A stretch of DNA of 64,000 nt from an uncultured bacterium (GCA_963798465.1 CAWCTC010000001.1:656465-720464); one strand, 5' to 3'. Shown: positions 5,016-63,891, counted from the first letter of the stretch. Program-made: numbers and translations. Notes: a model not told the origin generated them from the sequence alone.

Positions 5016-5717
5016 TTAATTTATTTCCCAGCCTTTGGCTTTCAGCGCATTTTTTGCCGCTTCCTGCTCGGCTTCCTGTTTTGATTTGCCTGTTCCTTCC
5101 GCGATTTTTTCTTTGCCTAGAAATACTCCGACTGTGAATTTTTTGTCATGATCCGGACCTTCTTCTTTCAAAGTTTTGTAAGCCGGCGTGACGCTTTCAT
5201 TTTCCTGCGCCTGTTCCTGAAATTTGCTTTTTGCATCAAGCCAAGTTTTTTCCTCGACTATTTTTTCGATAAGATTGAAAATGTATCTTGAAATGAAATA
5301 TTTTGCCATTTCATATCCTTGATCCAAGAATATTGCGCCAATCAAAGCTTCTATAGTATTTGCCAAAATAATCTGCCTGGCTCTTCCGGTATCTTTTGCT
5401 TCGCCTTTTGAAAGCAGAAGATAATCATTCATACCAATTTTTGAAGCGGCATCTGACATCGTGACGGCATTTACAAGTGCAGATCTGAAAGATGTCAGCT
5501 CTCCTTCATTACTGTCAGGATATTTTTCATATAAATGTTCAGTGACAATAAGTTCAAGAACCGCATCGCCCAAAAATTCTAATCTTTCATTGTGAACCAG
5601 TTCAGAATCCTTGTGCTCGTTCAAATAAGACCTATGGGTAAAAGCCTGTTTCAAAAGATTCTTGTCTTTAAAAGTTATTCCTATATTTTTTTCGAAACTT
5701 GAAAAATCTGGCTTCAT
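5016..5717 (-). CDS. rnc: Ribonuclease III
   Basis: Carries the RNase III signature 'NERLEFLGDAVLELIV' and a C-terminal dsRBD ('KKFTVGVFLGKEKIAEGTGKSKQEAEQEAAKNAL'). Confidence 0.92.
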   Translation of the reverse strand: MKPDFSSFEKNIGITFKDKNLLKQAFTHRSYLNEHKDSELVHNERLEFLGDAVLELIVTEHLYEKYPDSNEGELTSFRSALVNAVTMSDAASKIGMNDYLLLSKGEAKDTGRARQIILANTIEALIGAIFLDQGYEMAKYFISRYIFNLIEKIVEEKTWLDAKSKFQEQAQENESVTPAYKTLKEEGPDHDKKFTVGVFLGKEKIAEGTGKSKQEAEQEAAKNALKAKGWEIN

Positions 5718-5860
5718 TTACCCGAGGAAATTTTTGCCAATAAAAATTACTGTTTCGGCAAAACAGTGATATTCGTTATTTTTCTTGATTAAACCTGTTG
5801 TCATTATAAGTTGTTATGTAACAATTTTTAGAAACGTTGGCAAAAACTTTGACGGGTGAA
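5718..5860 (-). repeat. Family-1 intergenic hairpin element, copy A (abuts rnc ATG)
   Basis: The ends 'TTACCCGAGGAAATTTTTGCCAAT' and 'CGTTGGCAAAAACTTTGACGGGTGAA' form an imperfect inverted repeat. They are shared with the copies at 8886-9022 and 26458-26596. Confidence 0.75.
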
Positions 5861-5875
5861 CTTCTCGCTAAAATT

Positions 5876-6775
5876 TTATTGGTTATTTCTGCTGCTTATT
5901 ATTGTTATTGCTTTCGTGATGATTGGCAAGATGTCGTTGTAGAAATTTAAATTTTGAATATCTTGAAGCTTGAACCATTTTGCGTCATCAAGTCCTCCGC
6001 TGTCTCCGAGATGCAATTCCTTTCTGTCGGTTCGAGCAAGAAAATAAGTGACTTGTTTCCTAATCTTTCCTTCTTCAGGATGATTTGCAACATATTCATT
6101 TTTCAAAAGCTCTTCTTCAACTGTGATATCCAAACCGAGCTCGTCTTTTATTTCTCTCAGCACTCCGATTTTTGGATCTTCGCCTGGATTGATTTTACCT
6201 TTTGAAAGAGTCCATTTTCCAAAAACATCGTGAACGAAAGCAAAATAAATATTTCCGTCTTCAATACTATATATCACGGCTCCCGCAAGCTGTTTTATCG
6301 GCATCTTATCAAATGGAATATCTTTATGTTTTTTGGAAACTTCTTCTTTGCCCGGCTCTCCGAGCTCTTTGTAAATCGTTCCCAAAACTCCATTTATAAA
6401 ACCGCCGCTTTTTTCTCCGCTATAAGTTTTTGCAAGCTCAATAGCTTCGTTGATTGCAACTTTTGCCGGAACTTCTTTTCTATCAGAGAACAAAAGCTCA
6501 TAAAGCCCGATGCGCAAAATATTTCTGTCGGCAATCGAAATTTTGTCTATCGGCCAATCCGGCGCAGCTTTCACAATAATACTGTCCAAATCCGCTTTTT
6601 TGTCTATAACTCCTTTCAAAAGATTTTCTGAAAATGCTTTTTCGGAATTGCCTTCTCCAAACTCGGCATTATTTCTTTCAAGCGAGGCAAGAGCCTCTTC
6701 TCTCGAAGAATTGCGAAAATCCCACTCAAAGGCGGATTGAAATACTATTGATCTTGCAAGGTGCCTAGAAGACAT
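5876..6775 (-). CDS. nusB: NusB antitermination factor fused to a C-terminal Nudix hydrolase domain
   Basis: The N-terminal ~145 aa are NusB-like ('ADRNILRIGLYELLF..VPAKVAINEAIELAK..GFINGVL'). The C-terminal half carries a Nudix box, 'GKINPGEDPKIGVLREIKDELGL'. Confidence 0.8.
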   Translation of the reverse strand: MSSRHLARSIVFQSAFEWDFRNSSREEALASLERNNAEFGEGNSEKAFSENLLKGVIDKKADLDSIIVKAAPDWPIDKISIADRNILRIGLYELLFSDRKEVPAKVAINEAIELAKTYSGEKSGGFINGVLGTIYKELGEPGKEEVSKKHKDIPFDKMPIKQLAGAVIYSIEDGNIYFAFVHDVFGKWTLSKGKINPGEDPKIGVLREIKDELGLDITVEEELLKNEYVANHPEEGKIRKQVTYFLARTDRKELHLGDSGGLDDAKWFKLQDIQNLNFYNDILPIITKAITIISSRNNQ

Positions 6776-8264: not shown

Positions 8265-8867
8265 TCAAATAGTAAATTTCTTGCAAAAACTTCTTCTATG
8301 TTCGGCACTCAAACCATATTTTGCAATTAAATCACGATGTTTTTTGGTACCATAACCTTTATGAATCTCAAAACAATATTTTGGATATTTTTTGGCGAGT
8401 TTGCACATGAGCGCGTCTCTCCTAACTTTCGCAACAATTGAAGCAAAAGCAATCGCCCTTTCCTTCTCATCACCTTTTATTATCGTCTTTTGGTTTTTAA
8501 ATATTTTTGGAGCTTTGAGTCCGCCATCAAGCAACACCAAACATTCTTTCGGTTTTACTTTAAGTTTTTTCATTCCGCTTTCTATGCAATTTCTAATCGC
8601 TTTACTTAAACCAAGTTTATCAATTTGTTTCGCACTCTGAAAGCAAACAAAAAAATCCACAATTTTTTCTTTTTTTAATTTTTTTAATTTTTTGTCTATT
8701 TCTTCTCTTTTTTCCGGAGTAAGCTTTTTAGAATCTTTTATTTTCCCGAAATTTTTCCCGTCAAAATCTGCCGGCATTTTAAAAGCACCGATTGCAACCG
8801 GCCCAGCAAGCGGACCTCTTCCTACTTCATCGATTCCGATAATATATTTGATGACACTTTTTTTCAC
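8265..8867 (-). CDS. rnhB: Ribonuclease HII
   Basis: 'IGIDEVGRGPLAGPVAIGAF' and 'DSKKLTPEKRE' are typical RNase HII motifs. Confidence 0.9.
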   Translation of the reverse strand: MKKSVIKYIIGIDEVGRGPLAGPVAIGAFKMPADFDGKNFGKIKDSKKLTPEKREEIDKKLKKLKKEKIVDFFVCFQSAKQIDKLGLSKAIRNCIESGMKKLKVKPKECLVLLDGGLKAPKIFKNQKTIIKGDEKERAIAFASIVAKVRRDALMCKLAKKYPKYCFEIHKGYGTKKHRDLIAKYGLSAEHRRSFCKKFTI

Positions 8868-8885
8868 ATTAATATTATATATTAT

Positions 8886-9022
8886 TTACCCGAGAAAATT
8901 TTTACTGATGAAAATGTTATTGATAATATACCAACAATTTTAGTCTATCATTGTCATATTTTATTACCAAACTCTGTTAAATTACATTTTCAATAACATC
9001 AGTAAAAACTTTAACGGGTTAA
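8886..9022 (-). repeat. Family-1 intergenic hairpin element, copy B (18 nt upstream of rnhB ATG)
   Basis: The ends are 'TTACCCGAGAAAATTTTTACTGATGAAAATGTTATTG' and 'CAATAACATCAGTAAAAACTTTAACGGGTTAA'. The ACTGAT/ATCAGT pair covaries with GCTGAT/ATCAGC in copy C. Confidence 0.75.
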
Positions 9023-9687: not shown

Positions 9688-12600
9688 ATGGCAAAATTTA
9701 CCCATTTACATACGCATTCTCACTACTCTCTTCTAAACGCACTGCCTCAATTGAAGGAGCTTGTTAAAATGACGAAAGAACTCGGGATGTCATCTCTTGC
9801 TCTTACCGATGCAGGCAATATGTACGGCGCGATTGAGTTTTATCAGACATGCAAAAAAAATGATATCAAGCCAATCCTCGGCGTAGATTTTTATGTCGCA
9901 GCAAGAACTCGCCACGACAAGCAAGGAGGAATAGACAATCGCAGAGCAAGACTCGTTCTTCTCGCAAAAAATAATGCCGGTTATAAAAATCTCATCAAGC
10001 TCGTCACAGATTCATAACTTCGAAGGATTTTATTACAAGCCGAGAATCGACCGCGAACTTATGGAAAAATATTCCGACGGGCTCATCTGCATCATGCCGC
10101 ATTTTTCCGGAGAAATTTCTTATGCATTGAAAAATGGCGACACAGAAAAAGCAAAAGAAATTGTTGAATTGGTATAAAAAAGTTTATGGCGCGGAAAATT
10201 TCTTTTTGGAAATCACGCATCATCCGGAAATCGAAGGACAGATGGAGCTCAAAGAAAAAATAATAAAATTTGCAAAAGAAACAAAGACACCGACTTGTCG
10301 CCGCTCATGATGTTTATTATCTGAAACCTGAAGACAAAGCTGCACGCGACACTCTTGTCCAAGTAAATTCTCATTCCGATTTTTCAGACAGGGCAGATAG
10401 CGGAAGCACAGATGATTTTTCTCTTATTTCTCCGGAAAAAGCTGAAGAATATTTCAAAGACACTCCCGAAGCATTGGAAAATACTCAGAAAATTGCCGAG
10501 GCTGTGCAACATTGAAATAACGTTTCGGCCAAGCCGCTTGGAAATTTCCAAATTACATCGTTGAAAATGGAAATTCTTACGACGAAGAATTGCGAAGGCT
10601 TTCATACGAAGGATTGGAAAAAAGAGGATTGCCACATTCAAAAGAAGTTATAGACAGGCTCGAATATGAATTGAAAGTCATTCAAGATAAAGGCTATGCG
10701 CAATACTTTCTTGTCGTTTACCGATCTTCTCAAATTTTCAGAAGAAAATGAATATTTATACGAACATCAGAGGTTCCGTCGCAGGCTCTCTCGTCACTTA
10801 TGTCACAGGAATTACAAAAGTAAATCCGATTGAATACAAGCTTCCGTTTGAAAGATTTTTGAATCCTGAAAGGCCTTCCGCTCCCGATATCGATATGGAC
10901 TATGCCGACAACAGGCGCGATGAAGTCATCAATTATGCCAGAGAAAAATATGGAAAAGAAAATGTCGCGCAGATCGGAACTTTCGGAACAATGATGGCTC
11001 GCGGAGCTTGCAGAGATGTTGCGCGCGCAATGGGTTATCCTCTCGTTCTTGCAGACAAGATTGCAAAACTCGTGCCGATGGGTTCGCAAGGTTTTCCGAT
11101 GACGATCAAAAAAGCTCTGGCGGAAGTTGCTGAATTGAAAGAAATGTATAAAAATGACAAAGACACGAAAGCAATTATAGACATGGCGAAAAAAATAGAA
11201 GGTTGTGCACGACACATTTCCGTTCACGCAGCCGGAGTCGTCATTGCGCCTACTCCGCTCACAGATTACACTCCGCTTCAATATGATCCAAAAGGCGAAG
11301 GGAAAATCATCACTCAATATGATATGCACGCAGTCGGCGAAGATGGTGTCGGACTTTTGAAATTTGATTTTCTCGGAATTAAAAATCTTTCCATCCTTGC
11401 CGATGCGGTAAAACGCGTGAAAAAAATAGAAAATATAGATTTGGACATTGAAGAAATTCCGCTCGATGACAAACTCACTTTTGATCTTGCTCTCACGAGG
11501 AGAAACGACCGGGCTTTTCCAATTGAACGGCTCCGGCATGACAAAATATTTGAAAGATTTGAAACCGACGACTATCCACGATATCAACGCGATGGTCGCA
11601 CTTTACCGTCCAGGTCCGATTGAACTCATTCCGGAATATATCGAAAGAAAACACAATCAGAAAAAAATAAAATATTTCGATCCGAGAATGAAAGAATATC
11701 TCGATCTTTCTTACGGGCTTATCGTGTATCAAGATGACGTCATGCTGACGGCTATCAAGCTTGCCGGATATTCCTGGCTTGAAGCGGACAAACTCAGAAA
11801 AGCCATGGGAAAGAAAATCCCAGCGGAAATGGCAGGCGCAGAAAGATAAAATTCTGAAAGGTTTTATCGAACATGGACTGACAGATAAAAAAGCAGATAC
11901 GCTTTGGAAACTCATCGAGCCTTTCGCAGCTTACGGTTTCAATAAAGCTCACGCAGCAAGCTATGGAAGAGTTGCATATCAGACCGCTTACATGAAAGCA
12001 AACTTCCCTGCAATCTATATGTCCGCAGTTCTTACAGCAGACTCTGGCGATGTGGAAAAAATCGGCGAGTTCATCGCAGACTGTAGAAAAATGGGAATTC
12101 CTGTTTTGCCTCCAAGCGTAAACGAAAGCTTCAGCGACTTCACCGTTGTAAAAACTCCCGGAGCAGATGTTCATTCAGTCGGTGAAGATCGCGACAAGAT
12201 TCGCTTCGGACTTACAACAATAAAAAACTTCGGCGAAGAAATTTCAAAAGTTATAATTGAAGAAAGAAAGAAAAATGGAAAATTCACTTCCCTTTCAAAC
12301 TTCTTGGAAAGAATCATCGACCGAAATCTGACAAAAAGATCGCTTGAACCTCTCATAAAAACCGGCGCACTCGACGAATTCGGCGAAAGAGGCCAGATGC
12401 TTGCAAATGCTGAAAATCTTTTAAAATATAATAAAGAGATCGGCAAAAAAGATCAAAATCAAGATTCTCTTTTTGGAATGTTCGACGGCCCATCCGAAGA
12501 TGGAAAAACAAAAGAAGCTTTCACTCTCCTACCAGCACCGGAAGCCACGATGAAAGAAAAACTTTCCTGGGAAAAAGAATTGCTCGGACTTTATATTTCC

Positions 12601-12945
12601 GGACATCCGCTTGATAAATATAAAAGCATTTTGGAAAAACAAAAAATTACAATAAAAAGAATCAAAGGAGATACAGAAAATGTAAAAAGCATCGTTGACG
12701 GCGGACAGCCAATCGGCGGAATCATCGAAGAAGTCCGCGAAATAACGACCAAAAATAACGAGCTTATGGCTTTCATAAAAATTGCAGATTTGACCGGCTC
12801 AATCGACGCAGTAGTTTTTCCAAGGACTTATGCCGAAATGAAAAATGCAATCACGCCGGACAGATGTGTTGCAGTCATTGGAAAAGTTTCTGAAAGAAAT
12901 GGAGAAATAAGTTTGATTATAGATAAACTTAAAATTTTGGAATAA
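9688..12945 (+). pseudogene. dnaE: DNA polymerase III alpha subunit, about 9 frame changes between ~10,000 and ~11,850
   Basis: The PHP domain ('FTHLHTHSHYSLL'), 'EGFYYKPRID', 'RGSVAGSLVTYVTGIT', 'PDIDMDYA', 'GLLKFDFLGIKNL', 'ALYRPGP' and 'YGFNKAHAASYG' are collinear but spread over three frames. The last 1.1 kb is intact. Confidence 0.85.
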
Positions 12946-13071: not shown

Positions 13072-13539
13072 TCATTTGTCAACAAATCCTCCAATATATT
13101 TGGTTTCAAATACGCAAATATCATCTTTAAAAATCTTTTCTTCTCCTGAAAAATTATCAACGTCTCCAATAAGATTATTCGTATATTTAAAATTACCTTT
13201 TTCATACAATTTTGGTCCGCGGTATGGCATCTCAATAGTTGCGTTAGATAAAGATTCAACCAAAAAAGGGTAAATTTCTTTTACTTCTACATTTTTATGA
13301 ACAAATCCGTAATAAACCATCATCCAAATTGGTTTATTTTTTAAAAATAAAACTTCTCTGCCACCATAAGGTTCACCACCAAAATAGTTGTCGTGATATT
13401 TGTAATCACCATCTTCAAAAACTATTGTAGTAGAACCATCGGTCTGTTTTTGTTGAATAGATTTATCACCGGAAGCATAAGTCGCTCGGCTAGCTTTAAA
13501 AATAAATTCCTTGAGTTGTTCTTTGTCTAAATTATTCAC
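13072..13539 (-). CDS. Hypothetical protein, DUF5680-like (GTG start)
   Basis: 'ATYASG..DGS..FEDGDYKYHDNYFGGEPYGGREVLF..KPIWMMVYYG' resembles the DUF5680 pattern, recalled from memory rather than searched. Confidence 0.45.
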   Translation of the reverse strand: MNNLDKEQLKEFIFKASRATYASGDKSIQQKQTDGSTTIVFEDGDYKYHDNYFGGEPYGGREVLFLKNKPIWMMVYYGFVHKNVEVKEIYPFLVESLSNATIEMPYRGPKLYEKGNFKYTNNLIGDVDNFSGEEKIFKDDICVFETKYIGGFVDK

Positions 13540-19780: not shown

Positions 19781-21869
19781 TTAAATATCAATATTCGCCA
19801 ATTTTGCATTTGACTGTATGAAAGCTTTTCTCGCAGGAACATCGGTACCCATGAGCATATCGAATGTTTTATCCGCTTCTTGTGCATCAATTACAGTAAC
19901 TCTTTTCATCATTCTTCTTGCCGGATCCAAAGTTGTTTCCCAAAGTTCGTCTGCATTCATTTCTCCAAGACCTTTATATCTTTGAACTGAAACTTTCGGA
20001 CCTTTTTTGGTTTCAATTTCTTCATCCTCAACAATTTCTTCTGATGTCGATTCAACTTCGGCAACTTCGCTATCGGCAATTTTTTCTTTTTTAAAAAAGG
20101 CTTCTTTTTCTTCCTCTGTATAAAAATAATGAACTTCTTTTCCTATTTTAACTTTATACAATGGCGGCTGCGCAATACAAATATGTCCACCATCTATGAG
20201 CGGTCTAAAATATCTGTAGAACAAAGTTAGAAGAAGCGTTGTAATGTGCGCTCCATCAACGTCAGCATCGGTGGCAATAATTATTTTATGATATCTTAAT
20301 TTTTCAATATCAAATGTATCTCCTATCGCGGTGCCGAGCGCTACGACAATATTTTTTATCATTTCTGATTCAAGCATTTTATCAAGTCTTGCTCTTTCAA
20401 TGTTCAAAATTTTTCCTCGAAGCGGAAGTATCGCTTGAATTTTTCTATCGCGTCCCATCTTTGCCGTACCGCCTGCAGAATCTCCCTCCACAATTATTAT
20501 TTCTGATTCTGATGCATCCTTGCTTTGACAATCTGCAAGCTTACCGGGAAGCGTCATTCCTTCAAGTGCACCTTTTCTGAGTATTGAATCCTTCGCGGCC
20601 TTAGCTGCTTTTCTCGCTTTAAGAGCTAAAATTACCTTAGAAACTATTGCTCTTGCATCATCTGGGTTCTCTTCAAGAAAGGCTCCGAAAGCCTCGCCAA
20701 AGACCTCTTCAACTGCGCCACGAGCCTCGACAGAACCAAGCTTTGCTTTCGTCTGACCTTCAAATTGAATTTCGCGGAGCTTCACAGAAATGACAGCAGT
20801 CAAACCTTCAAGTACATCATCTCCGGTAAAATTTTCCTCACTTTCTTTTGTCAGATTATTTTTTCTTGCATAATTATTCAGCGATCTCGTGAGAGAGGTT
20901 TTGAAACCTGTGACATGAGTTCCGCCTTCAGGAGTTTCAATATCGTTTGCAAATGCCATAATCCTCGAAGAAATATCATCAACATATTGCAATGCTATTT
21001 CTACAGATTCAACTCCTGCAGCTTTTTTCTCAACATAAAAAACATTTTTATGAATTGGTTTTTGAAATTGATTGTAAAATTTAACAAGAGATAAAAGTCC
21101 GCCTTCAAAATAAAAAGATTGCGATGGCGCTTCTATATCCAAGTTCTGAAAAATAAAATACTTCTTTATCGTCGATTTTTTCTGTAATTTCTCTTGCATC
21201 CATTGCAGTGATTCTCAAACCTTTTACAAGATAAGCTTGTTGTCTCATGTGAGAAACCACGCTGTTGAAATCAAAAACAATTCCCTCTTTGAAAATTTCA
21301 GGATCCGGCTCAAAAGTAACTATCGTTCCATGTTTGTCTGTCTTTCCGATTTTTTTTACAGAAGCTTTTGGTTTTCCTTTTGCATATTCTTGAATGTAAA
21401 TCGCGCCATCTTTATGAACGACAACTTTCATGTAAGTTGAAAGAGCGTTCACTACTGAAGCTCCGACTCCGTGAAGTCCTCCGGAAACTTTATATTCTGT
21501 TCCTTCACCTCCAAATTTTCCTCCAGCATGAAGGACGGTCATAATGGTTTCGAGTGCTGAAACTTTTGTTTGTTTGTGAATATCTACAGGAATACCTCTT
21601 CCGTTATCTGTAACTCTTACTCTGTTTCCAGGCAATAAAACAATCTCGATGTGATTGCAATAACCGTTCATCGCTTCATCGCGAGAATTGTCAAAAATCT
21701 CTGTTATAAGGTGATGCAAACCATCTGGACCTGTTGTTCCAATATACATACCTGGACGCCTTCTGACGGGCTCCAGCCCCTCAAGGACCTGGATGGCACT
21801 GGCATCATAATGATGTTCACTCTTTGCTTCTTTTTTGGGTTTTTCTTGCCCGTTCAAATTTTTTGCCAT
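19781..21869 (-). pseudogene. gyrB: DNA gyrase subunit B with a single +1 insertion in a T-run (~21,150)
   Basis: The N-terminal GHKL ATPase ('LEGLEPVRRRPGMYIG', 'DNGRGIPV') and the Toprim/C-terminal part ('EIIIVEGDSAGG', 'IIATDADVDGAHI') lie in two frames. The junction 'TTT TAT TTTT CAG' restores '..KEVFYFQNLDIEAPSQSFYFEGG'. Confidence 0.88.
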
Positions 21870-22143
21870 AATTATATATGTTTATAATATTTACTTTTAC
21901 TTGTTATAATAAGCCTTTATGTACAGCCCTATTTCTTCAAAAAACTTGTTCGGGTGAAGCATAATTTAAAAACAGCTTATAGCTTTTTATACCTTGTATT
22001 ATAACAAATAATCGGCGTAAAAGAAACAGAAAATTGGGTTTTTATAAAATAAATTCCTAAAATATTAAATAAAAAGCTATTTACATATTATTTTTATTGT
22101 GTTAATCTAGCAATAGAAAAACAAATCTGAAAGGAGGTATTAC

Positions 22144-23160: not shown

Positions 23161-23268
23161 CCCGTAAAGAAATTTTAATATTTTGATAATTTCGACTTCT
23201 TGATAAATTGATTCTATACTTTTTTAGAAAAATTTTAATACTGAGCTGAATTTCACACGGGACAAGTA
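23161..23268 (-). repeat. Family-2 intergenic element, copy 1 (fills pheT stop to next ATG)
   Basis: The left block 'CCGTAAAGAAATTTTAATATTTTGATAATTTCGAC' and right block 'ACGGGACAAGTA' are shared with 61805-61914. The minus-strand ends CCCGU...ACGGG can pair, and ACGGG directly abuts the ATG. Confidence 0.65.
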
Positions 23269-23271
23269 TAA

Positions 23272-25632
23272 TTATCTTACTTGCCAATCTTTTTTTGCAT
23301 TCATCTTATCGGTAATTTTCTGCATAATTGCATTTACTTCATCATCAGAAAGAGTTTTTTCATATGACTGAAAAATTATTCTGTATGCGTAAGAAGTTTT
23401 TTTAGTTCCGTCTTCCAAAGTTTTTGTGAAGACATCGAACAATCTGTTTTTCAACATAAGTTCTCCAGCATTTTTATTTATTATTTCCAAAACTTCATCG
23501 GCTTTCGTTCCTTCCGGAGTAAATACAGCAATATCGCGAATCATGAACGGAAATGGTGAAATCTTTTTAAATTTTAAGTCTCTACCATCTTCTTTTGGAA
23601 AATCATATTCTAAAACATCGGGTAAATTCTTAATCATATCTGAAATTAAAAATTCAGCGATATTTTCATCATTATTTATCTTCTCTAGTTTTAAGTTTAG
23701 TGTTTCAGAAAGCTTCTTCAAAGTTGCATCAAGCACATCTTTTTCTTTTGGTTTTTTAACTCCTGCTGGATTTTGTACTCCAATGACAAAATTTTCAGTT
23801 TCTCCATTAAAACTAAATACATGGCCAAATTCAAATATTTTTATTTGAGGCATATCAATAAGTTCAGAATATCTAGCATTTAGATCTAAAGAATCCTTGA
23901 TACCAGAAGAAAGATTAGTTCTCAAATATTTTTTCTCTGGAGATAAAGGTTTTAATAATTCAATATCACCCTTCTTTACAAAAGAGTAATTCATTACTTC
24001 AGAAAAACCTTCTTCATACAAAAAATTTCTTATTTTTTGCTTATAAGCAAAAACTTTATTTGTTTTTGGTTTTTTTATTGAATCAGGAATATCAATATAT
24101 TTTATTTTATCGTAACCATATATCCTTCCTATCTCTTCCGCGAGATCTTCCTTGATTCTCAAATCCAATCTTTCATCAGGAACAGTAATGACAAATCTTT
24201 CTTCATTGTCAGACATTCTTCTGTATCCGACGATATTTTTGAATCTTTCTGATATTTTTAAATCTTCTATAACTACTTTTCCTGTAAGAGATGTTGCATG
24301 AGTAACTTTTCCATCTCCTAAATATAATCCGCAATGATCTACCCCCTCTAGAACTTTAGTGCCAGGTAAAAATTCAATTGTTTCTGTGTATATCTTTCCA
24401 TCTTTTGTATTTGAAAATATAACATCTCCAGCCTTCAAATCTTTTTCTTCTATTTTTTCTCCAAACACATATTGATCAACTGACATTCTTGGAATCTGAA
24501 TTCCCGCTTGAGCAAAAAGGTTGCTGACAAAACCTGAGCAATCAAAAGCTTTCGGCGCATCGTAAGTTATGCTTGCTCCACGTTTATATGGAACTCCAAC
24601 AAAAGTTGGTGCGAGTTTCAAAACCTCATCAATCGGTCTGACTTTCTTCCATTCAAAATTAAATCTGTCAAAAATCTTTTCAATATCAGAATCTTTTATT
24701 GGAACGCCGATTATTGAGCTTGCTTCGGCTGAAGAAATGCCGAGCTTGAATTTATTTGCTCTTTTTGGATAATTATCTACAACATCTCCAACTTTTGTAT
24801 CTTTTGTTCCGGCAATTTCAACAATTAATTTTGTGAGAATATCCATCGCTTCCCCGCAAAGCTCAGGCGTCAAATCATTTTCATATCTTTTTGAAGCATC
24901 TGTTTGAATTTTAATTTTTTGTGCGGTTTTTCTTATGTTTACCGGGCTAAAATTCGCCGACTCCAAAATAATATTTTTTGTATTGAGATCGAGCTCAGCA
25001 AAATCTCCGCCTTTTATGCCGGCAATTGCAAGCGGATTTTTTCCGTCCGTAATAAGCAGGACGCTTTCATCAAGCTCGACTTCTTTTTTATCAAGAGTTG
25101 TTATTTTTTGGCCTTTCCCGGCATTTTTAACGACAATTTCATTGCCGATTTTATCAGAATCAAAAGCGTGCATCGGCTGGCCGATTTCAAGCATGACAAA
25201 ATTTGTCGCATCAACAATATTATTTATCGATCTCTGTCCGAGTATTTCCAGCTTTTCCGCTAGCCATTTTGGCGAAGGACCAACTTTGATATTTTCAACG
25301 ACTCTTCCGATATATCTTCTGCACAGTTTTTCATCATCAATTTTTACTTCAAGATTTTTTGAAGTTTTTGAAATATTAAAATCTTTAAATTTTCTAGAAT
25401 ATTTTTCTATTTTAATATCAGCAATAGTTCCGAGTTCTCTTGCAATTCCTCTGTGACATAAGCAACTATGATTTAAGTTTGGCGTAGCTTTTGTATCTAT
25501 GACAACATCACCATTCATTTTTTCAGTTCCTTCAACTTCCATCGAATGCATTTCCAAAAGCTCCACCGTTTTTTCAACTTTCGGTGCTTTGCCATTAAAA
25601 TATTCATTTAACCATTTATAAGAAACTTTCAT
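23272..25632 (-). CDS. pheT: Phenylalanine--tRNA ligase beta subunit carrying an internal NlpC/P60 insertion
   Basis: B1, B3_4 ('NNIVDATNFVMLEIGQPMHAFD'), B5 ('FVITVPDERLDLRIKEDLAEEIGRIYGYDKI'), core and C-terminal FDX-ACB-like segments are all present and intact. No OB-fold B2 domain was seen. Confidence 0.9.
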   Translation of the reverse strand: MKVSYKWLNEYFNGKAPKVEKTVELLEMHSMEVEGTEKMNGDVVIDTKATPNLNHSCLCHRGIARELGTIADIKIEKYSRKFKDFNISKTSKNLEVKIDDEKLCRRYIGRVVENIKVGPSPKWLAEKLEILGQRSINNIVDATNFVMLEIGQPMHAFDSDKIGNEIVVKNAGKGQKITTLDKKEVELDESVLLITDGKNPLAIAGIKGGDFAELDLNTKNIILESANFSPVNIRKTAQKIKIQTDASKRYENDLTPELCGEAMDILTKLIVEIAGTKDTKVGDVVDNYPKRANKFKLGISSAEASSIIGVPIKDSDIEKIFDRFNFEWKKVRPIDEVLKLAPTFVGVPYKRGASITYDAPKAFDCSGFVSNLFAQAGIQIPRMSVDQYVFGEKIEEKDLKAGDVIFSNTKDGKIYTETIEFLPGTKVLEGVDHCGLYLGDGKVTHATSLTGKVVIEDLKISERFKNIVGYRRMSDNEERFVITVPDERLDLRIKEDLAEEIGRIYGYDKIKYIDIPDSIKKPKTNKVFAYKQKIRNFLYEEGFSEVMNYSFVKKGDIELLKPLSPEKKYLRTNLSSGIKDSLDLNARYSELIDMPQIKIFEFGHVFSFNGETENFVIGVQNPAGVKKPKEKDVLDATLKKLSETLNLKLEKINNDENIAEFLISDMIKNLPDVLEYDFPKEDGRDLKFKKISPFPFMIRDIAVFTPEGTKADEVLEIINKNAGELMLKNRLFDVFTKTLEDGTKKTSYAYRIIFQSYEKTLSDDEVNAIMQKITDKMNAKKDWQVR
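24199..24642 (-). other. NlpC/P60 (C40 peptidase-like) module embedded in PheT (aa ~331-478)
   Basis: 'VGVPYKRGAS....FDCSGFVSNLF...DHCGLYLGDGKVTHAT' shows the canonical NlpC/P60 order with Cys, His and His present. Confidence 0.75.
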
Positions 25633-25694: not shown

Positions 25695-26453
25695 TTAAAA
25701 TTGATTTACTAATCTCAAGTCTCCAGAATATAAAAGTCGGATATCATCTATTTCATATTTAAGCATTGCAAGTCTGTCTACTCCAAAACCAAAAGCAAAA
25801 CCTCTCCAATCATTAGAATTTATTCCTACACTATTTAAAACTTTTGGGTGCACCATTCCTGCACCACCGAGCTCAAGCCATCCAGAACCTCCGCAAAGCT
25901 GACACTTACCTTCTCCTTTGCATTTAAAACAAGTGACGTCAACTTCAACACCTGGTTCAACAAAAGGAAAATAACTAGGTCTAAATCTAACATTTACATC
26001 CTTCTTTAAAAATTTATCAAAAAAAGTATTTATTGTAGATTTTAAATCAGCTAAGGAAACATTCTTATCTACAAGAAGTCCTTCACACTGGTGAAATAAC
26101 GCTTCGTGTCTTGCATCTGTAGCTTCATTTCTAAAAACTCTTCCTGGACAAATTATTTTGAAAGGAGGTTTATTATTTTCCATATAACGAATCTGCATGG
26201 CACTAGTTTGGGTGGTCATAAGTCTATCTTCTTTTTCTCCAAAATTTTTACTTGATTTAATCCAAAAAGTATCCTGCATATCGCGCGCAGGGTGATCCTT
26301 AGGAACATTTAGTGCATCAAAATTGTGGTATTCGTCTTCTAGCTCAGGACCATCTACTAGAGTAAATCCCATCTCAAAAAAGATTCTGTTCATGTCGTCT
26401 ATAACACGAGTGAGCGGATGAATATGTATATTTTTTTGATTTGTATCTTGCAT
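25695..26453 (-). CDS. pheS: Phenylalanine--tRNA ligase alpha subunit (short form, no N-terminal coiled coil)
   Basis: Carries the class II motifs 'HPARDMQDTF', 'PGRVFRNE', 'FRPSYFPFVEPGVEVDV' and 'GAGMVHPKVL..GFAFGFGVDRLAML'. Confidence 0.92.
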   Translation of the reverse strand: MQDTNQKNIHIHPLTRVIDDMNRIFFEMGFTLVDGPELEDEYHNFDALNVPKDHPARDMQDTFWIKSSKNFGEKEDRLMTTQTSAMQIRYMENNKPPFKIICPGRVFRNEATDARHEALFHQCEGLLVDKNVSLADLKSTINTFFDKFLKKDVNVRFRPSYFPFVEPGVEVDVTCFKCKGEGKCQLCGGSGWLELGGAGMVHPKVLNSVGINSNDWRGFAFGFGVDRLAMLKYEIDDIRLLYSGDLRLVNQF

Positions 26454-26457
26454 ATGT

Positions 26458-26596
26458 TTACCCGAGAAAATTTTTGCTGATAAAAATGTTATTGCTAATA
26501 TTTTGATAAATTATATTTTATTACTATTTCTGCCCTGATAGATACAGTATCTTTTTTGCATTTTCAATAACATCAGCAAAAACTTTAACGGGTTAA
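26458..26596 (-). repeat. Family-1 intergenic hairpin element, copy C (4 nt from pheS ATG)
   Basis: The ends are 'TTACCCGAGAAAATTTTTGCTGATAAAAATGTTATTG' and 'CAATAACATCAGCAAAAACTTTAACGGGTTAA'. Confidence 0.75.
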
Positions 26597-26617
26597 TTAT
26601 ACAGAAAATACGAAGTT

Positions 26618-29171: not shown

Positions 29172-29585
29172 CTAAATATTATTTTTTACATATTTGAATT
29201 TTCTCCACAATCTGCCGCTGCCTTTATTTAGGTTTTTAAAATTTGATGTCAAAGCATGACAGTTTGGACAAATCAACCTCAAATTCTTTTCTAAATTATT
29301 TTCTGAATTACCGTCAATATGATCAATCTCAAGAGGAACTTTTCCGGTAATTTTATGTTTTTTATTCCATCCGCACAAACTGCACATCTCACCGTTTTTC
29401 TGTATAAAATATTTTTTAATATACTTTGAGATATTTCTTGTGATAATTCCTCTCTTGCCATTTTTTTTGCCTGCTTTCCAAAATTTAATATATTTTTTAA
29501 ATTGATAATCTATCTGACATTTGTTCGAACAATATTTTATCTGTGAGCGTGTTTTTAATTTCTTTTTGCAATTTATGCATTTCAT
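29172..29585 (-). CDS. HNH endonuclease with N-terminal zinc ribbon
   Basis: 'CINCKKKL..YCSNKC' and 'LEIDHIDGNSENNLEKNLRLICPNCHA'. Confidence 0.8.
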   Translation of the reverse strand: MKCINCKKKLKTRSQIKYCSNKCQIDYQFKKYIKFWKAGKKNGKRGIITRNISKYIKKYFIQKNGEMCSLCGWNKKHKITGKVPLEIDHIDGNSENNLEKNLRLICPNCHALTSNFKNLNKGSGRLWRKFKYVKNNI

Positions 29586-31639: not shown

Positions 31640-31882
31640 CCTAGTTGTATAATTTTAAAGCTTTTAAAGTTTGGTTAAGTAATATTTATCTATCTATTTT
31701 AAGTCCTAAATTTTGCTACTTGATTCATCTCGTAATTTACAACGGGACAAGTAAGTGAAAAGCAGTCTATCAGAAAAAAGACTGTTTAGCAACCTGATTT
31801 ATTGTCGACGTAGAACGAGTGAGATGAAAAGATACTTTTCATCTCCGAGTCGAGGAGACAATATAAGAGCCAAAGGCTGCTT

Positions 31883-32884
31883 CTATTCATTATTATCCTC
31901 AGAATCGCCCGCTTGAGGCTTACCGTCATTTTTTACTATATAATCTATTACATTATTCAAACCATCGCCTGTAAAAATATTTTCTATGTTATACCAAGAA
32001 TGTTTTACTCTGTGGTCCGTAACTCTGTCCTGCAAAACATTATATGTCCTGATTTTTTCTGATCTGTCCGCTGTTCCAATCTGATCCTTTCTTTCACTGG
32101 CAAATTTCTTTGCATCTTCTTCTTCTTTTTGAAGTTCAATTTTTGCAATCAAAATCGACATTGCTTTATCTTTATTTTTTGCCTGACTTCTTTCAGCAGT
32201 TGAACGGACATCTATACCTGTCGGCTTGTGAACAATTCTTACAGCCGTTTCAACTTTGTTTACATTTTGTCCGCCAGCTCCACCAGAACGAGATGTTTCA
32301 ATAATCAAATCCGACGGTTTGATTTCAATTTTTGATTTCTTTCTTATCGGCAAGATTGCAATTGATGCAGTCGACGTATGAACTCTTCCGGATTTTTCCG
32401 TTTCTGGAACTCTCTGAACTCTGTGAACTCCCGTTTCAAACCTCAATTCTTTGTAAACTTCTTTTCCTTTTATTTCAATCGAAACTTCCTTGTATCCGCC
32501 AAGAGCCGAGCGTGATTCATCGACAAATGAAAATTGCCAGCCTTTGATTTCAGCATATCTTTTGTACATTTTTGCCAAATCTTCGGCAAAAATAGCAGCT
32601 TCTTCTCCGCCAACTCCGGCTCGAATTTCCATGATAACTTCATTCGGAAATTTTTCCTCTTCGGCATCTACTGCAACAATATCTTTCATCTGAGCAAGCA
32701 AGTTTGTTTTTTGAGATTCTATACTTTTTATTTCTTCTTCAGCAAGAACAAACATGGCAGGATCTTTTTCCGCCATCTTCTTTATCGACTCTTCTTCATT
32801 TTCCAATCGAACATACTCTTCGGCAAAAAAAGTCGTTTTTTTATTTTTTCTGAATTCTTCTATTATCTCTTGATTCGGATTCAT
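31883..32884 (-). CDS. prfA: Peptide chain release factor 1
   Basis: GGQ motif '[18 protein letters not shown]' and an RF1-type PxT region '[17 protein letters not shown]'. Confidence 0.85.
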
Positions 32885-37595: not shown

Positions 37596-38120
37596 TTACT
37601 TAAAATCAAAATTATTCTTAATCTCGCGGGAAATCCTTTCAATCTTTTTTATTCTGCGAACATGTCTGGCTTCATTTGAAAAATCCGTTCCAAGCCAAAT
37701 CTCCACGGCTTTTTTCGCAACGTTCGGCTTCAAAAATCTCGCACCGAGAGAAAGGATGTTTGAATCGTTATGCAATTTTCCGAGTTTTACAATCTGATAT
37801 TTTGAAAAAATCCCTGGATTTCCATAAAAAACAGTTGCACGGACATTCGGATATCTGTTTGCAACCATCGCCTCGCCTTGTCCCGAACCGCCGAGAATAA
37901 TTCCTATATTATTTTCCGGATTGAGCGCGACAGCTTTTGCGACAGGTGAAATAAAATCTGGATAGTCATCTCCATTTTCATATTGATGCGCACCGAGATC
38001 GTAAACTTCATAGCCGAGACTTTTCACGAAAGGAACAAGCTCTTCTTTCAATTCAAAACCGGCATGATCAGTGCCAATATAAACTTTTGGTTTGTGACTT
38101 CTGAATCCAAGATTCTTCAT
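37596..38120 (-). CDS. rpiB: Ribose-5-phosphate isomerase B (RpiB/LacA/LacB family)
   Basis: 'VYIGTDHAGFELKE' and 'GIILGGSGQGEAMVANR'. Confidence 0.85.
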   Translation of the reverse strand: MKNLGFRSHKPKVYIGTDHAGFELKEELVPFVKSLGYEVYDLGAHQYENGDDYPDFISPVAKAVALNPENNIGIILGGSGQGEAMVANRYPNVRATVFYGNPGIFSKYQIVKLGKLHNDSNILSLGARFLKPNVAKKAVEIWLGTDFSNEARHVRRIKKIERISREIKNNFDFK

Positions 38121-40615: not shown

Positions 40616-40687
40616 TGTCATTCCCGCGGAGGCGGGAATCCATAATAATTAAATTCAGTCTAGATTCCCGTCTGCACGGGAATGACA
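40616..40687. repeat. Pair of 'ATTCCCG(C)...(G)CGGGAAT' hairpins forming a larger inverted repeat (TGTCATTCCCG...CGGGAATGACA)
   Basis: Both hairpins were read directly. They lie immediately after the obg stop. Confidence 0.65.
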
Positions 40688-61804: not shown

Positions 61805-61914
61805 TCCGCAAAGAAATTTTAATGTTTTGATAATTTCGACTAAATATATTAATTAATTCTGTGTTTATTACTAAGCATAATTTAGAGGCCTTGCCTCTAA
61901 ATACGGGACAAGTA
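61805..61914 (-). repeat. Family-2 intergenic element, copy 2 (contains hairpin TTTAGAGG-CCTTG-CCTCTAAA)
   Basis: Shares 'CCGCAAAGAAATTTTAATGTTTTGATAATTTCGAC' and 'ACGGGACAAGTA' with 23161-23268. Confidence 0.65.
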
Positions 61915-61917
61915 ATT

Positions 61918-63891
61918 TTATACGCCTAAAATTTTTCTTAGCTCTTCCTCGGAAATTTCTTTTGCTCCGGGTTCTTCGGCTTTTGTTTTTCCATCTTCCG
62001 ATTTTTTTGGTTCTTCTTTTTTAATTTCCGGCTTAAATTCAGGTTTCGATTCTTCAATTTTTACTGATTCAATTTTTGGAGCTTCTGGTTTTGATTCAGT
62101 TTTTACCGGTATCTCAACTTTTTTCGGCTCGGTTTTTTTCATGACTGATGCAAGCACGGAACGAAGATCAGCCAAATTTTCCTGACTCATCGTTTTTACA
62201 TGACTCTCCGGCTTCACCTTGGACTGATTGTCAGAAACTGTTTCAGATTTTACTTCAGGAATATTTGTAGAAACTTCTTCTTTCGGCTCGGCAACAAATT
62301 TCTTGGCCAATTCTTTCAAAGGCAAAAAATCATCTTCGGCACTTTCCTCCATCGGTGGAAACTTCTTTTCATATTTTGGCTTTTCTTCTCTTGTCGGCTT
62401 CGGGGAAACTGGTTTGATATATTCTTTTTCTTTTGCTTCTGAAACTACAGGCGCCGGCTTCGGCTCATAAACCGGCTTTTTTATTTCAGGCTTCGCAATA
62501 ATAGTTTTAGATTCTGATGGAGCCGGATACTTTCTCATTCCATAGCTTGGACTTGAAGCAGCTGAAGCAGATTTGGATGCAGTTACCACTTTCATCGAAC
62601 TTTTCGCATCCTCTATCCATTTTCTGATAATTTCTTCAACTTCGGCGCGAGGTTTTGAAAAATTCTTTCTTGAATTTTCAATAATTTCAGTCCTGTAAGA
62701 AATCACGGGTTCTGGAAATGGCGGAAGAGACGATGCAGAAAATGGAACAGAACCAACGCCATCTATCATCAATTTCAAATACATTTGATATATGCCGAGA
62801 TTCACTAAATCTTCAGCTGTAAATTGCGGTGCGAATTCTTTTTCAAGAACTTCAGCATCATAGGCTCCGACACGAAATACTATCATTGTTCCAACGTTTC
62901 CAAACACGGCAGCTCTCACCTCTTCCGACATTTGCTCGACATACTGGTGCGCAATCGTAAGATTCAAATTATATTTTCTTGCTTCAGAAAGAATATCCGC
63001 AAAAGATTCATTGGCAAAAGATTGAAATTCATCCACATAAAGATAAAAGTTCGGCAAAGTTCGAAGAGTTTTTTCAGGAACATCGGCACGAGACATGGCA
63101 GCAAGATATATTTTTGTAATGAGCATCGAGCCAAGCAAATTTGCATTTGCCTCGCCGACTCTTCCTTTTGAAAGGTTGATTATCAGAATTTTTTTCTCAT
63201 CCATCAATTTTCTGATATCAAAAGATGATTTCGGCTGGCCGAGAATATTTCTTATCAGAGGATTTGCGGTAAATTGTCCAACTTTGTTTTGAATAGATGG
63301 AATTGCTTCTGCCGCTTGCCTTTCGGTATATTTTGCAAATTCATCAACCCAAAAACTTTTTACAGAAACATCTTTCACATTGTCCACAACTTTTTTTCTG
63401 TATTCTTTATCAGAAAGCAACCTGTTCACACCAAGAAGTGTTGAACCGGGATATTCGATGAGAGCGAGAAGAGAGTTCGTCAAGATATATTCCATTCTTG
63501 CAGACCAAGCATCAACCCAGATTTTTTTAAATGAACTCATGAGTCCGGCAACAACCAAATGCCTTTTATCTGCACCGATATCTTCAAGTACATTAAAAGA
63601 AATAGGATTTTCAACATCAAACGGAGCGAAGTAAACAACATCATTTAATCTTTCCGGCGGAATGTAATTTAGAAGCAATTCGGCCGTCTTTCCGTGCGGA
63701 TCCATAAAAGCCATACCTTCGCCATTTTGGAGGTCCTGAATGGCCATATTTTCAAGAAGAGTGGACTTTCCCATGCCGGTTTTACCGATAACATAGACAT
63801 GTTTCGTTCTATCTTTGGCTTTGATTCCAAATTTGACTTTTTTTCCGCGAGAATCCGTTTCTCCAAAGTATGTGATTTTTTCAGGATCCAT
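61918..63891 (-). CDS. VirD4/TraD/HerA-superfamily P-loop ATPase (T4SS coupling-protein-like) with ~230-aa Lys/Pro/Glu-rich tail
   Basis: Walker A 'GKTGMGKST', Walker B 'FYLYVDEFQSF' and 'LNLTIAHQYVEQM', followed by a low-complexity C-terminus. Confidence 0.6.
   Translation of the reverse strand: MDPEKITYFGETDSRGKKVKFGIKAKDRTKHVYVIGKTGMGKSTLLENMAIQDLQNGEGMAFMDPHGKTAELLLNYIPPERLNDVVYFAPFDVENPISFNVLEDIGADKRHLVVAGLMSSFKKIWVDAWSARMEYILTNSLLALIEYPGSTLLGVNRLLSDKEYRKKVVDNVKDVSVKSFWVDEFAKYTERQAAEAIPSIQNKVGQFTANPLIRNILGQPKSSFDIRKLMDEKKILIINLSKGRVGEANANLLGSMLITKIYLAAMSRADVPEKTLRTLPNFYLYVDEFQSFANESFADILSEARKYNLNLTIAHQYVEQMSEEVRAAVFGNVGTMIVFRVGAYDAEVLEKEFAPQFTAEDLVNLGIYQMYLKLMIDGVGSVPFSASSLPPFPEPVISYRTEIIENSRKNFSKPRAEVEEIIRKWIEDAKSSMKVVTASKSASAASSPSYGMRKYPAPSESKTIIAKPEIKKPVYEPKPAPVVSEAKEKEYIKPVSPKPTREEKPKYEKKFPPMEESAEDDFLPLKELAKKFVAEPKEEVSTNIPEVKSETVSDNQSKVKPESHVKTMSQENLADLRSVLASVMKKTEPKKVEIPVKTESKPEAPKIESVKIEESKPEFKPEIKKEEPKKSEDGKTKAEEPGAKEISEEELRKILGV

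Follow-up and report, generated by a model that had tools for sequence, protein, structure and literature searches.

Hairpins before start codons in a patescibacterial genome are probably ORF-less miniatures of a mobile GIY-YIG nuclease cassette

What are the hairpin elements of about 140 nt that stand upstream of functionally unrelated genes in the genome of an uncultured bacterium? The stretch of DNA analyzed here, referred to below as the window, is 64,000 nt long (GCA_963798465.1 CAWCTC010000001.1:656465-720464; positions are counted from its first letter). The original prediction for this locus placed three such elements before rnc, rnhB and pheS and offered two readings, namely a mobile, MITE-like hairpin and a shared cis-regulatory leader RNA. 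All three elements are indeed present, on the minus strand and in gene sense, and Pfam searches identify the downstream genes as rnc, rnhB and pheS.

Copy C (26457-26596, minus strand; 132-nt core from CCCG to CGGG, 26461-26592) is a TTAA-CCCG...CGGG-TAAA hairpin located directly 5' of pheS that belongs to subfamily III and scores 111 bits (E = 2e-17) with a covariance model. Its 5' arm (26555-26592, minus strand) reads CCCG TT AAAGTTTTT GCTGAT GTTATTG AAAATG, and its 3' arm, taken together with the adjoining UAA (26458-26498, minus strand), contains CAATAAC ATTTTT ATCAGC AAAAATTTT CT CGGG. A TATAAT -10 box of pheS (26596-26601, minus strand) lies 3 nt before the CCCG, and the ATG (26451-26453) of pheS (25695-26453, minus strand; Pfam tRNA-synt_2d, 329 bits) is located 4 nt past the UAA of the element. 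Copy B (8885-9022, minus strand; core 8889-9018), also of subfamily III, lies between an intrinsic terminator and rnhB's own leaderless-type promoter, the TATAAT box of which (8874-8879, minus strand) is downstream of the element and 6 nt before the GTG (8865-8867). Copy A (5717-5860, minus strand; core 5721-5856) is subfamily II-like, has no -10 box before it and fills the space between the stop codon of the nusB-NUDIX gene and the ATG of rnc (CGGG-TAA-ATG). The predicted spacings of 0, 18 and 4 nt for rnc, rnhB and pheS hold as distances from the UAA to the start codon, with the correction that rnhB starts with GTG rather than ATG. In gene sense, copies A, B and C can be aligned over both ends as TT[A/C]A-CCCG-YY-AAAGTTTTT-(6 nt)-(7 nt)...(7 nt)-(6-nt bulge)-(6 nt)-AAAAATTTY-CT-CGGG-TAAA, and the covariance model retrieves them at E = 1e-15 to 1e-17.

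A pattern scan and the covariance model also detected a fourth, diverged copy D of 106 nt (21849-21954, minus strand), which overlaps the start of gyrB, identified by Pfam as well; its 5' arm follows TATGCT-TCA, and its 3' arm (GCAAAAAATTTGAACGGG) now constitutes gyrB codons 2-7, so that the GyrB protein starts with MAKNLNG. Beyond these four copies, with cores of 106-136 nt and pairing arms of about 40 nt, neither method yielded anything convincing in the 64-kb window. Both gyrB (19781-21869) and dnaE (~9688-12945) are split into overlapping ORFs in this assembly and unbroken in close relatives (695 aa in L111 and 1100 aa in L114, respectively); the breaks are probably assembly indels, not biology. 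The neighborhood additionally encodes a NusB-NUDIX fusion (5876-6775, minus strand, 299 aa) that is kept in all relatives examined, and a PheT protein (23272-25632, minus strand) with an NlpC/P60 peptidase domain inserted between B3_4 and B5, an architecture also found in L111 and L113.

The predicted fold, with a stability of -29 to -40 kcal/mol, is closed by helix P1 (CCCG/CGGG), from which a 2x2 internal loop leads to a 15-bp helix containing an invariant G.U pair and on to a 7-bp helix (b) that sits opposite a 6-7-nt 3' bulge, in agreement with the closing helix, internal loop and two further helices originally described. Compared with shuffled sequences, the fold z-scores are -6.1 for copy C, -6.6 for copy B and a modest -2.6 for copy A, and at up to 3 mismatches the 5' motif has 10 matches in the window against 2.4 expected from shuffling, with 5 against 0.7 for the 3' motif. 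Covariation was assessed on 73 further copies of the window type (class 1, see below), with shuffles and mismatched partners as controls. Four base pairs show compensatory switches (GC/AU, CG/UA, UA/CG and GC/AU in 15, 8, 29 and 35 sequences, respectively; 87 cells, n=73), 99.5% of the terminal stem cells are paired, and the observed covariation score was reached by none of the 500 shuffles, the signal being lost when the 3' partner was slid. Helix b is fully paired in 55 of the 73 copies, compared with 6.6% in the mismatched controls. Pairing of the arms is under selection, as had been argued from the three original copies; the further step to an RNA function does not follow from covariation alone, the same signal being expected of the two pairing termini of a mobile cassette, which is what the arms are (see below).

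These structural features are what a dedicated cis-regulatory leader RNA would be expected to display, that is, a riboswitch, a thermosensor or a binding site for RNase III or another protein that controls translation initiation across a regulon, with any nuclease link secondary. Besides the covarying helices, such a leader would account for the strict orientation of the elements and their adjoining of start codons, the bias of the sense strand toward G.U pairs (about 3:1 over A.C), the conservation of unpaired loop nucleotides and of the UAAA tail, and the retention of the arms in orthologous copies. The 3' bulge (c') is also complementary to the segment just after b, yielding a second helix that is mutually exclusive with b, and compensatory changes in both b/b' and c/c' are suggestive of a switch. 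We nevertheless place no weight on the two-state switch: RNAalifold picks helix c in subfamily III, but compensatory variants of c are few, and this A/U-rich helix pairs almost as well in the controls (6/6 pairs in 53% of trials), which leaves its support weak. A search of Rfam 15 with the whole window at the gathering threshold, and with the element at E <= 10, returned only noise, in line with the original failure to recognize a known RNA family by eye and at odds with a curated class of leaders.

To delineate the family beyond the window, a two-arm pattern was run over contigs representing one genome per species. It matched at least 110 stretches, nearly all from Patescibacteria or from bins labelled wrongly as other taxa; class 1, the window type, accounts for 77 copies in about 13 Paceibacteria-type genomes, and at least 20 copies reside in the sampled JAVHRR01 loci. 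The pattern had no match in IMG/VR, and a phage origin was accordingly dismissed; nor did copy C's interior, searched for as an exact match in metagenomes, turn up anywhere. Class 2 is GC-richer, with arms CCCGCC...GGCGGG. In GC-richer Patescibacteria (L002, L010, L016, L020, L022-L025, L035-L039, L047, L051, L065 and others), class 2 elements have the form CCCGCC[C/T/A]AAGTTTTT...AAAAATTT[A/G]GGCGGG; some of them end in GGCGGG-T-ATG, three enclose a whole tRNA gene, and several are followed by a conserved TAAAGGTTTTGTGGCTAAATTT. In a 'Taylorbacteria' MAG (JAPLZG01; L058, L091 and L102), elements are directly consecutive (..CGGGTGAACCCG..) in tandem arrays, one of which consists of a full-length cassette, of the kind introduced below, between miniatures.

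The interiors of the elements vary by subfamily. Subfamily II has a reading frame of 14-16 or 27 codons that runs from an ATG to the terminal UAA and ends in ..IFIGKNFLG. Subfamily IIa is represented in L004, L007, L008, L028, L095 and L096, and in subfamily IIb (L006, L027, L034, L066 and others) the ATG is preceded by TGTGATATAAT at a distance of 7-10 nt, so that the ORF looks like a leaderless upstream ORF that stops beside the host AUG. We explain the in-frame ORFs of subfamily II as a leftover of the nuclease reading frame. A leader peptide was discarded as the function of the family, given the conserved in-frame stop in subfamilies I and III, and so was an internal promoter as a general feature, a good internal TGTGATATAAT being found only in IIb; in subfamilies I and III, most of the -10-like boxes are without the key A2 or T6.

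The placement of the elements is highly regular. An ORF start is located within 42 nt of the CGGG in 66 of the 77 class-1 miniatures (ATG in 64 of these 66), 33 of the 77 end in exactly CGGG-TAA-ATG, and nearly all elements point the same way as the gene that follows them. The 3' flank UAAA is essentially invariant although it lies outside the search pattern. At the 5' side, the sequence logo is T-G-n-TATAAT-T-[A/C]-A immediately before the CCCG: a hexamer with at least a 5/6 match to TATAAT occurs exactly 3 nt before the CCCG in 41 of 76 copies, and TAA and TCA make up about 50% and about 35% of these flanks, respectively, compared with the constant TAA(A) on the 3' side. In the window at large, 15 of 62 genes have a -10-like hexamer 5-9 nt ahead of the start codon (peak at 6 nt), against 5% of all ATGs. 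The arrangement (TGn)TATAAT 6-9 nt before the start, for example at 37596-38120, 29172-29585, 31883-32884, 13072-13539 and 61918-63891, has the geometry of leaderless mRNAs, and many window genes look leaderless. The lack of a Shine-Dalgarno sequence at rnc, rnhB and pheS, to which the original prediction drew attention, is genuine and ordinary, given that no such motif precedes 43 of the 67 crude gene starts in the window. In promoters that carry an element, the G of CCCG may take the place of the A in a leaderless ATG. We dropped the idea that the element mimics a Shine-Dalgarno sequence, since most copies place CGGGU a mere 2-3 nt from the AUG and such sequences are hardly used in this genome.

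Could this placement simply reflect the scarcity of other non-coding DNA in a compact genome, the elements being inert decay products with arms kept alike by gene conversion only? Intergenic space is minimal (the empty rnc and pheS spacers described below measure 20-40 nt), the interiors diverge freely, and pseudogene forms are common. Inert debris would not, however, be expected to share the orientation of the downstream gene almost without exception, to hold the -10 box at a fixed spacing of 3 nt, to keep its pairing through compensatory changes, or to have been inserted recently in the miniature form, as is the case at pheS and rnc; we regard this reading as highly improbable.

The origin of the arms became apparent from a search with unpaired arms, which identified longer elements that share these termini and have a CCCG-to-CGGG span of about 293 nt. 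Three of these (in L027, L102 and L066) contain an intact ORF encoding an 89-aa protein, residues 2-71 of which match the Pfam GIY-YIG domain with 51.9 bits (cut-off 22.6), and Pfam detects no other domain in this protein, hence no separate DNA-binding domain. The ATG of the cassette lies about 26 nt past the CCCG, the 5' arm being the 26-nt leader, and the 3' arm consists of the last ~10-13 codons, ..AAC TTT TTT ATT AGY AAA AAT TTT CTC GGG TAA, including the invariant UAA. Both arms of copy C are homologous to these ends, the 5' arm to the leader with the start codon and the 3' arm with its UAA to the last codons (..NFFISKNFLG) with the stop; the window copies can be aligned with both ends of the cassette, and for copy C, 39 of 53 positions are identical at the 5' end, including the ATG, and 51 of 63 at the 3' end of the L120 cassette. 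Thus, the UAA is invariant because it is the stop codon of a nuclease gene, and the changes in the 3' arm look synonymous because this arm is of coding origin. The full cassettes, too, are closed by the terminal stem in minimum free energy folds.

A homolog search retrieved 194 proteins of 84-89 aa, named in databases 'GIY-YIG nuclease family protein' or 'predicted endonuclease containing a URI domain'. In 27 aligned homologs, Y3, Y5, Y16, G18, R26, H30, N31, E50 and R61/E62 are invariant, and most of the 27 share the NFFISKNFLG tail. No intact ORF is present in the window copies, and tblastn with the GIY-YIG protein gave no match in the window; one homolog, P0243, is 83% identical, the RNase III of the window is 100% identical to P0121, and an intact cassette is probably present elsewhere in the window's own genome. 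A metagenome scan with the 5' arm and the ORF start extended the set of cassettes (the tally includes L120, L122 and L027). In L120, a terminator is followed by TTATAAT-TAA, the 5' arm, the ORF and UAA-AC-ATG of a pilin-like gene, and in L122, ftsK-TAA is followed by A-CCCG.., the ORF and UAA-ATG of the next gene; altogether, the next start codon is located 0-4 nt past the stop in 7 of 8 intact cassettes. The same scan returned several frameshifted or truncated cassettes, and decayed or shortened forms are found in L096 (215 nt, with the ATG and internal segments lost), L125, L128, L130 and L131.

The relationship between cassette and miniature is not that of a plain deletion at one site. At one junction with flanks that are about 92% identical, L134 carries a full cassette and L066 a 135-nt miniature of another subfamily; the two share the junctions, but neither the inner arm nor the interior, and we therefore abandoned simple internal deletion in place as the explanation of this pair. 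The identical junctions with unlike contents imply that interiors can be exchanged or replaced between conserved ends. Moreover, the interiors of the miniatures are not simple deletions of known ORFs, which weighs against their derivation from cassettes, and the reverse direction, in which a hairpin element gained an ORF, may apply instead. A separate motif, paired hairpins TGTCATTCCCGCGGAGGCGGGAATC, occurs in the window (40616-40687) and in L017 (~2020-2068), where it precedes a different small GIY-YIG ORF.

Comparison of orthologous intergenic regions shows that the elements are present or absent at identical sites. At pheS, the window is filled (TGTATAAT-TAA-[CCCG..CGGG]-TAAACAT-ATG), whereas L111 and L112 (PheS 88% identical, flanks near-identical) and L113 (82%) are empty, with spacers of 29-40 nt; the empty site of L111, TGTATAAT-TGACAAC-ATG, is a leaderless-type promoter with the same box, and hence the -10 box of pheS predates copy C, which came to lie between box and ATG. 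At rnc, the element is present in the window and in L095 (RNase III 83% identical) and absent from L114, L115, L116, L117 and L119 (98, 94, 93, 88 and 85% identical, respectively) and from L105; the sequence ..GAGAAGTTTATGAAG of L114 compares with ..GAGAAGTTCA[CCCG..CGGG]TAAATGAAG of the window, so that the insertion took place at the start codon itself. At rnhB, the window, L114-116 and L119 are filled (TTTTTAA[CCCG..CGGG]TAAATAATATATAAT) and L117 is empty (TTTTTTAAATAATATATAAT). Copy D of gyrB is kept in L072, L061, L101, L111 and L112 and is absent in L113, where GyrB starts with MPKEKE. Gain and loss between close strains are rapid, and the insertions at pheS and rnc are recent and of the miniature form. 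Copies within a genome are not near-identical, and no recent burst is documented; between copy B and its counterpart in L119, the arms are identical at 38/38 and 35/38 positions and the interior at 68%. The mobile-hairpin reading in the original prediction is thus right in kind.

A second set of hairpins in the window, Family-2 (106-112 nt; 23161-23266, 31640-31751 and 61805-61912, all on the minus strand), starts with (A)CTTGTCCCGT and ends flush at an ATG; it is also found before rnhB in L118 and before a prepilin peptidase gene in L120. The Family-2 copy at rpsB is present in the window and L112 and absent in L111 (cactt|ATG). Upstream of rpmE, the near-identical strains L111 (3907-3956) and L112 (3651-3843) differ by a 143-nt indel that corresponds to neither hairpin family. 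We considered the rpsB and rpmE indels as members of the CCCG..CGGG family and excluded both.

The distribution among genomes also bears on the leader RNA. A leader serving rnc and pheS would hardly be missing from strains with proteins that are 88-98% identical, or one serving rnhB from L117, nor would it be expected upstream of rnhB's own promoter, as copy B is; retention at orthologous genes, typical of riboswitches and other leaders, is thus lacking where covariation is present. The downstream genes are diverse housekeeping genes without functional relationship, the interiors differ by subfamily, and a given gene, or a given site, can bear one subfamily in one genome and another elsewhere. 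In the spacer between the divergent rnhB and dnaE genes, the copy of the window is directed toward rnhB, and L105 has a copy of another subfamily that faces dnaE. Copies are shared among some genomes only at gyrB, murG and trmD. A regulon did not convince us: the same gene carries different subfamilies in ~5 genome pairs versus roughly 2.5 by chance (a rough estimate), and, vertical inheritance aside, genomes overlap in their downstream genes about as much as expected by chance. Finally, the 3' arm corresponds to the last codons of a nuclease gene. In our view, a dedicated regulatory leader is therefore unlikely, and the original suggestion of a shared leader RNA is not upheld; a secondary, exapted regulatory role may exist, but it is not the identity of the family.

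The junctions themselves bear on how the elements move. They are ambiguous by 1-4 nt (A, TAA or TAAA); rnhB and L122 fit duplication of TAA, and rnc fits insertion after TTNA with nothing duplicated. No single rule of target duplication (TA, TAA or TTAA) suits all junctions, and the simple duplication model was discarded; the TTA/TTAA target duplication that the original prediction had envisaged for a MITE is not established. A classical MITE moved by a transposase, either of the IS200/IS605 type (a PATE or REP element served by a Y1 HUH enzyme) or of the Tc1/IS630 type with TA duplication, would explain short multicopy elements with inverted-repeat ends and strain polymorphism. The 5' flank TT[A/C]A and the invariant 3' TAAA resemble the target and end tetranucleotides of IS200/IS605, to which the rnc junction also conforms, and the sense-strand bias would suit a single-stranded DNA intermediate as well. 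Against this stand the lack of any transposase gene in ~200 kb of annotated neighborhoods, the GIY-YIG product of the sole coding relatives with these ends, the single terminal stem in place of the subterminal hairpins of IS200/IS605, and the misfit of TA duplication at both rnc and pheS, which together make a transposase-driven origin very unlikely.

Taken together, we consider it likely that the hairpins of the window are ORF-less miniatures of a mobile, start codon-seeking GIY-YIG cassette of Paceibacteria-type Patescibacteria. This view builds on the homology of both arms to the cassette ends, the intact ORFs in relatives, the decayed forms, the presence/absence pattern, the position and orientation, and the selected pairing of the arms. 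The following scenario can be proposed. A putative nuclease, supplied in trans and acting on the conserved arms or on empty sites, would make a break, and repair of this break would copy an element into the site, by homing or guided by microhomology, without regular target duplication; the orientation rule and the irregular junctions fit a cassette copied in by repair. Cassettes and miniatures are found in host-gene orientation directly before the ATG, with junctions of the form T(T/A/C)A | (0-4 nt) ATG; the site is either the gap that separates the -10 box of a leaderless-type gene from its ATG, or the junction of an upstream stop codon and the ATG. In this scenario, the element would be transcribed together with the host gene, with transcripts predicted to start at the G of CCCG where the -10 box lies 3 nt upstream. 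Once folded, the hairpin would probably leave the AUG, 0-4 nt past the UAA, close to the transcript's 5' end or to the stop codon upstream; leaderless-like initiation or termination-reinitiation could then still work, and the element would be tolerated at this sensitive position for that reason. A start at the G would leave the CCC of P1 outside the RNA, and the complementarity of P1 then calls for a cause at the DNA level or for read-through transcripts. A stable hairpin beside the AUG of essential genes could also be inhibitory rather than neutral.

Somewhat more tentatively, we envisage a selfish, hairpin-closed minigene of ~300 nt that encodes a GIY-YIG protein limited to the catalytic domain, homes before start codons, couples its own stop to the host AUG and sheds miniatures; its nuclease might recognize the structure of the arm stem instead of a sequence, and the hairpin might preserve translation across the insertion. 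If so, miniatures become 5' leaders of housekeeping genes of CPR bacteria and, in the case of gyrB, once even coding sequence, and the cassettes constitute an undescribed class of elements that target stop/ATG junctions and, in leaderless genes, the gap from the -10 box to the ATG. Our searches of the literature, of which coverage was incomplete, returned no account of GIY-YIG minigenes bounded by hairpins in CPR bacteria, or of miniatures derived from them, which by itself does not prove novelty. Such an element would have the start codon as its landing place, in genomes mostly devoid of Shine-Dalgarno sequences and with leaderless-type starts, and the question arises how pheS, gyrB, rnc, murG, ddl and trmD are expressed despite a 130-nt hairpin between promoter and AUG. 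For annotation, the results are a warning that such covarying hairpins are not riboswitch-like leaders; in CPR populations, the elements are useful strain-level markers.

Among known mobile elements, MITEs are likewise short, non-coding, multicopy and polymorphic sequences with terminal inverted repeats; the elements described here are MITE-like in the way they work but are not MITEs in the strict sense, since those relatives that share their ends and have a gene code for a GIY-YIG nuclease, not for a transposase. The Correia repeat-enclosed elements (NEMIS) of Neisseria are inverted repeats of 100-155 bp that occur in many copies, often just upstream of genes with which they are co-transcribed; their hairpins affect mRNA processing and expression, their presence varies among strains, a TA target is duplicated, and their ends contain promoter boxes. 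We know of no coding parent of the Correia elements. The present family resembles them as short, polymorphic, multicopy hairpins upstream of genes and differs in sharing its ends with a GIY-YIG minigene and in terminating with the stop codon of that gene, 0-4 nt from the host start. With PATEs derived from IS200/IS605 and with REP/RAYT systems, it has in common hairpin formation, strand asymmetry, a conserved tetranucleotide in the 5' flank and an apparent lack of regular duplication; in contrast to these, a single terminal stem is formed from both ends, and no Y1 (HUH) transposase or RAYT gene was found in the annotated neighborhoods examined. As with the Rickettsia palindromic elements, a mobile palindrome can enter coding sequence (copy D, gyrB codons 2-7), but the Rickettsia elements are inserted in frame inside genes and are not known to derive from a nuclease gene; in the present family, a single copy has become part of a coding region. 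Closer parallels are the free-standing GIY-YIG homing genes, such as Seg of phage T4, and their intron-encoded relative I-TevI, where a selfish nuclease gene lies between host genes, is present or absent in relatives and probably spreads by break repair that does not require target duplication. The GIY-YIG ORF that defines such homing cassettes is present in the full-length relatives and missing from the window copies, and, unlike Seg and I-TevI, which exceed 200 aa and include a DNA-binding domain, the cassette protein has 89 aa and the catalytic domain alone (Pfam match 2-71), so that site-specific homing of the Seg/I-TevI kind is not expected; the enclosure of the gene in a conserved terminal stem, the abundance of ORF-less hairpin copies and the lack of a viral match are further differences. 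In size and domain content, the cassette protein equals the COG2827 'endonuclease containing a URI domain' (YhbQ/YazA type), whose genes are treated as ordinary single-copy genes of unknown role and for which we found no description as hairpin-bounded mobile cassettes; for the very common small genes of Patescibacteria that encode only a GIY-YIG domain, the comparison offers a role as mobile cassettes rather than in housekeeping repair.
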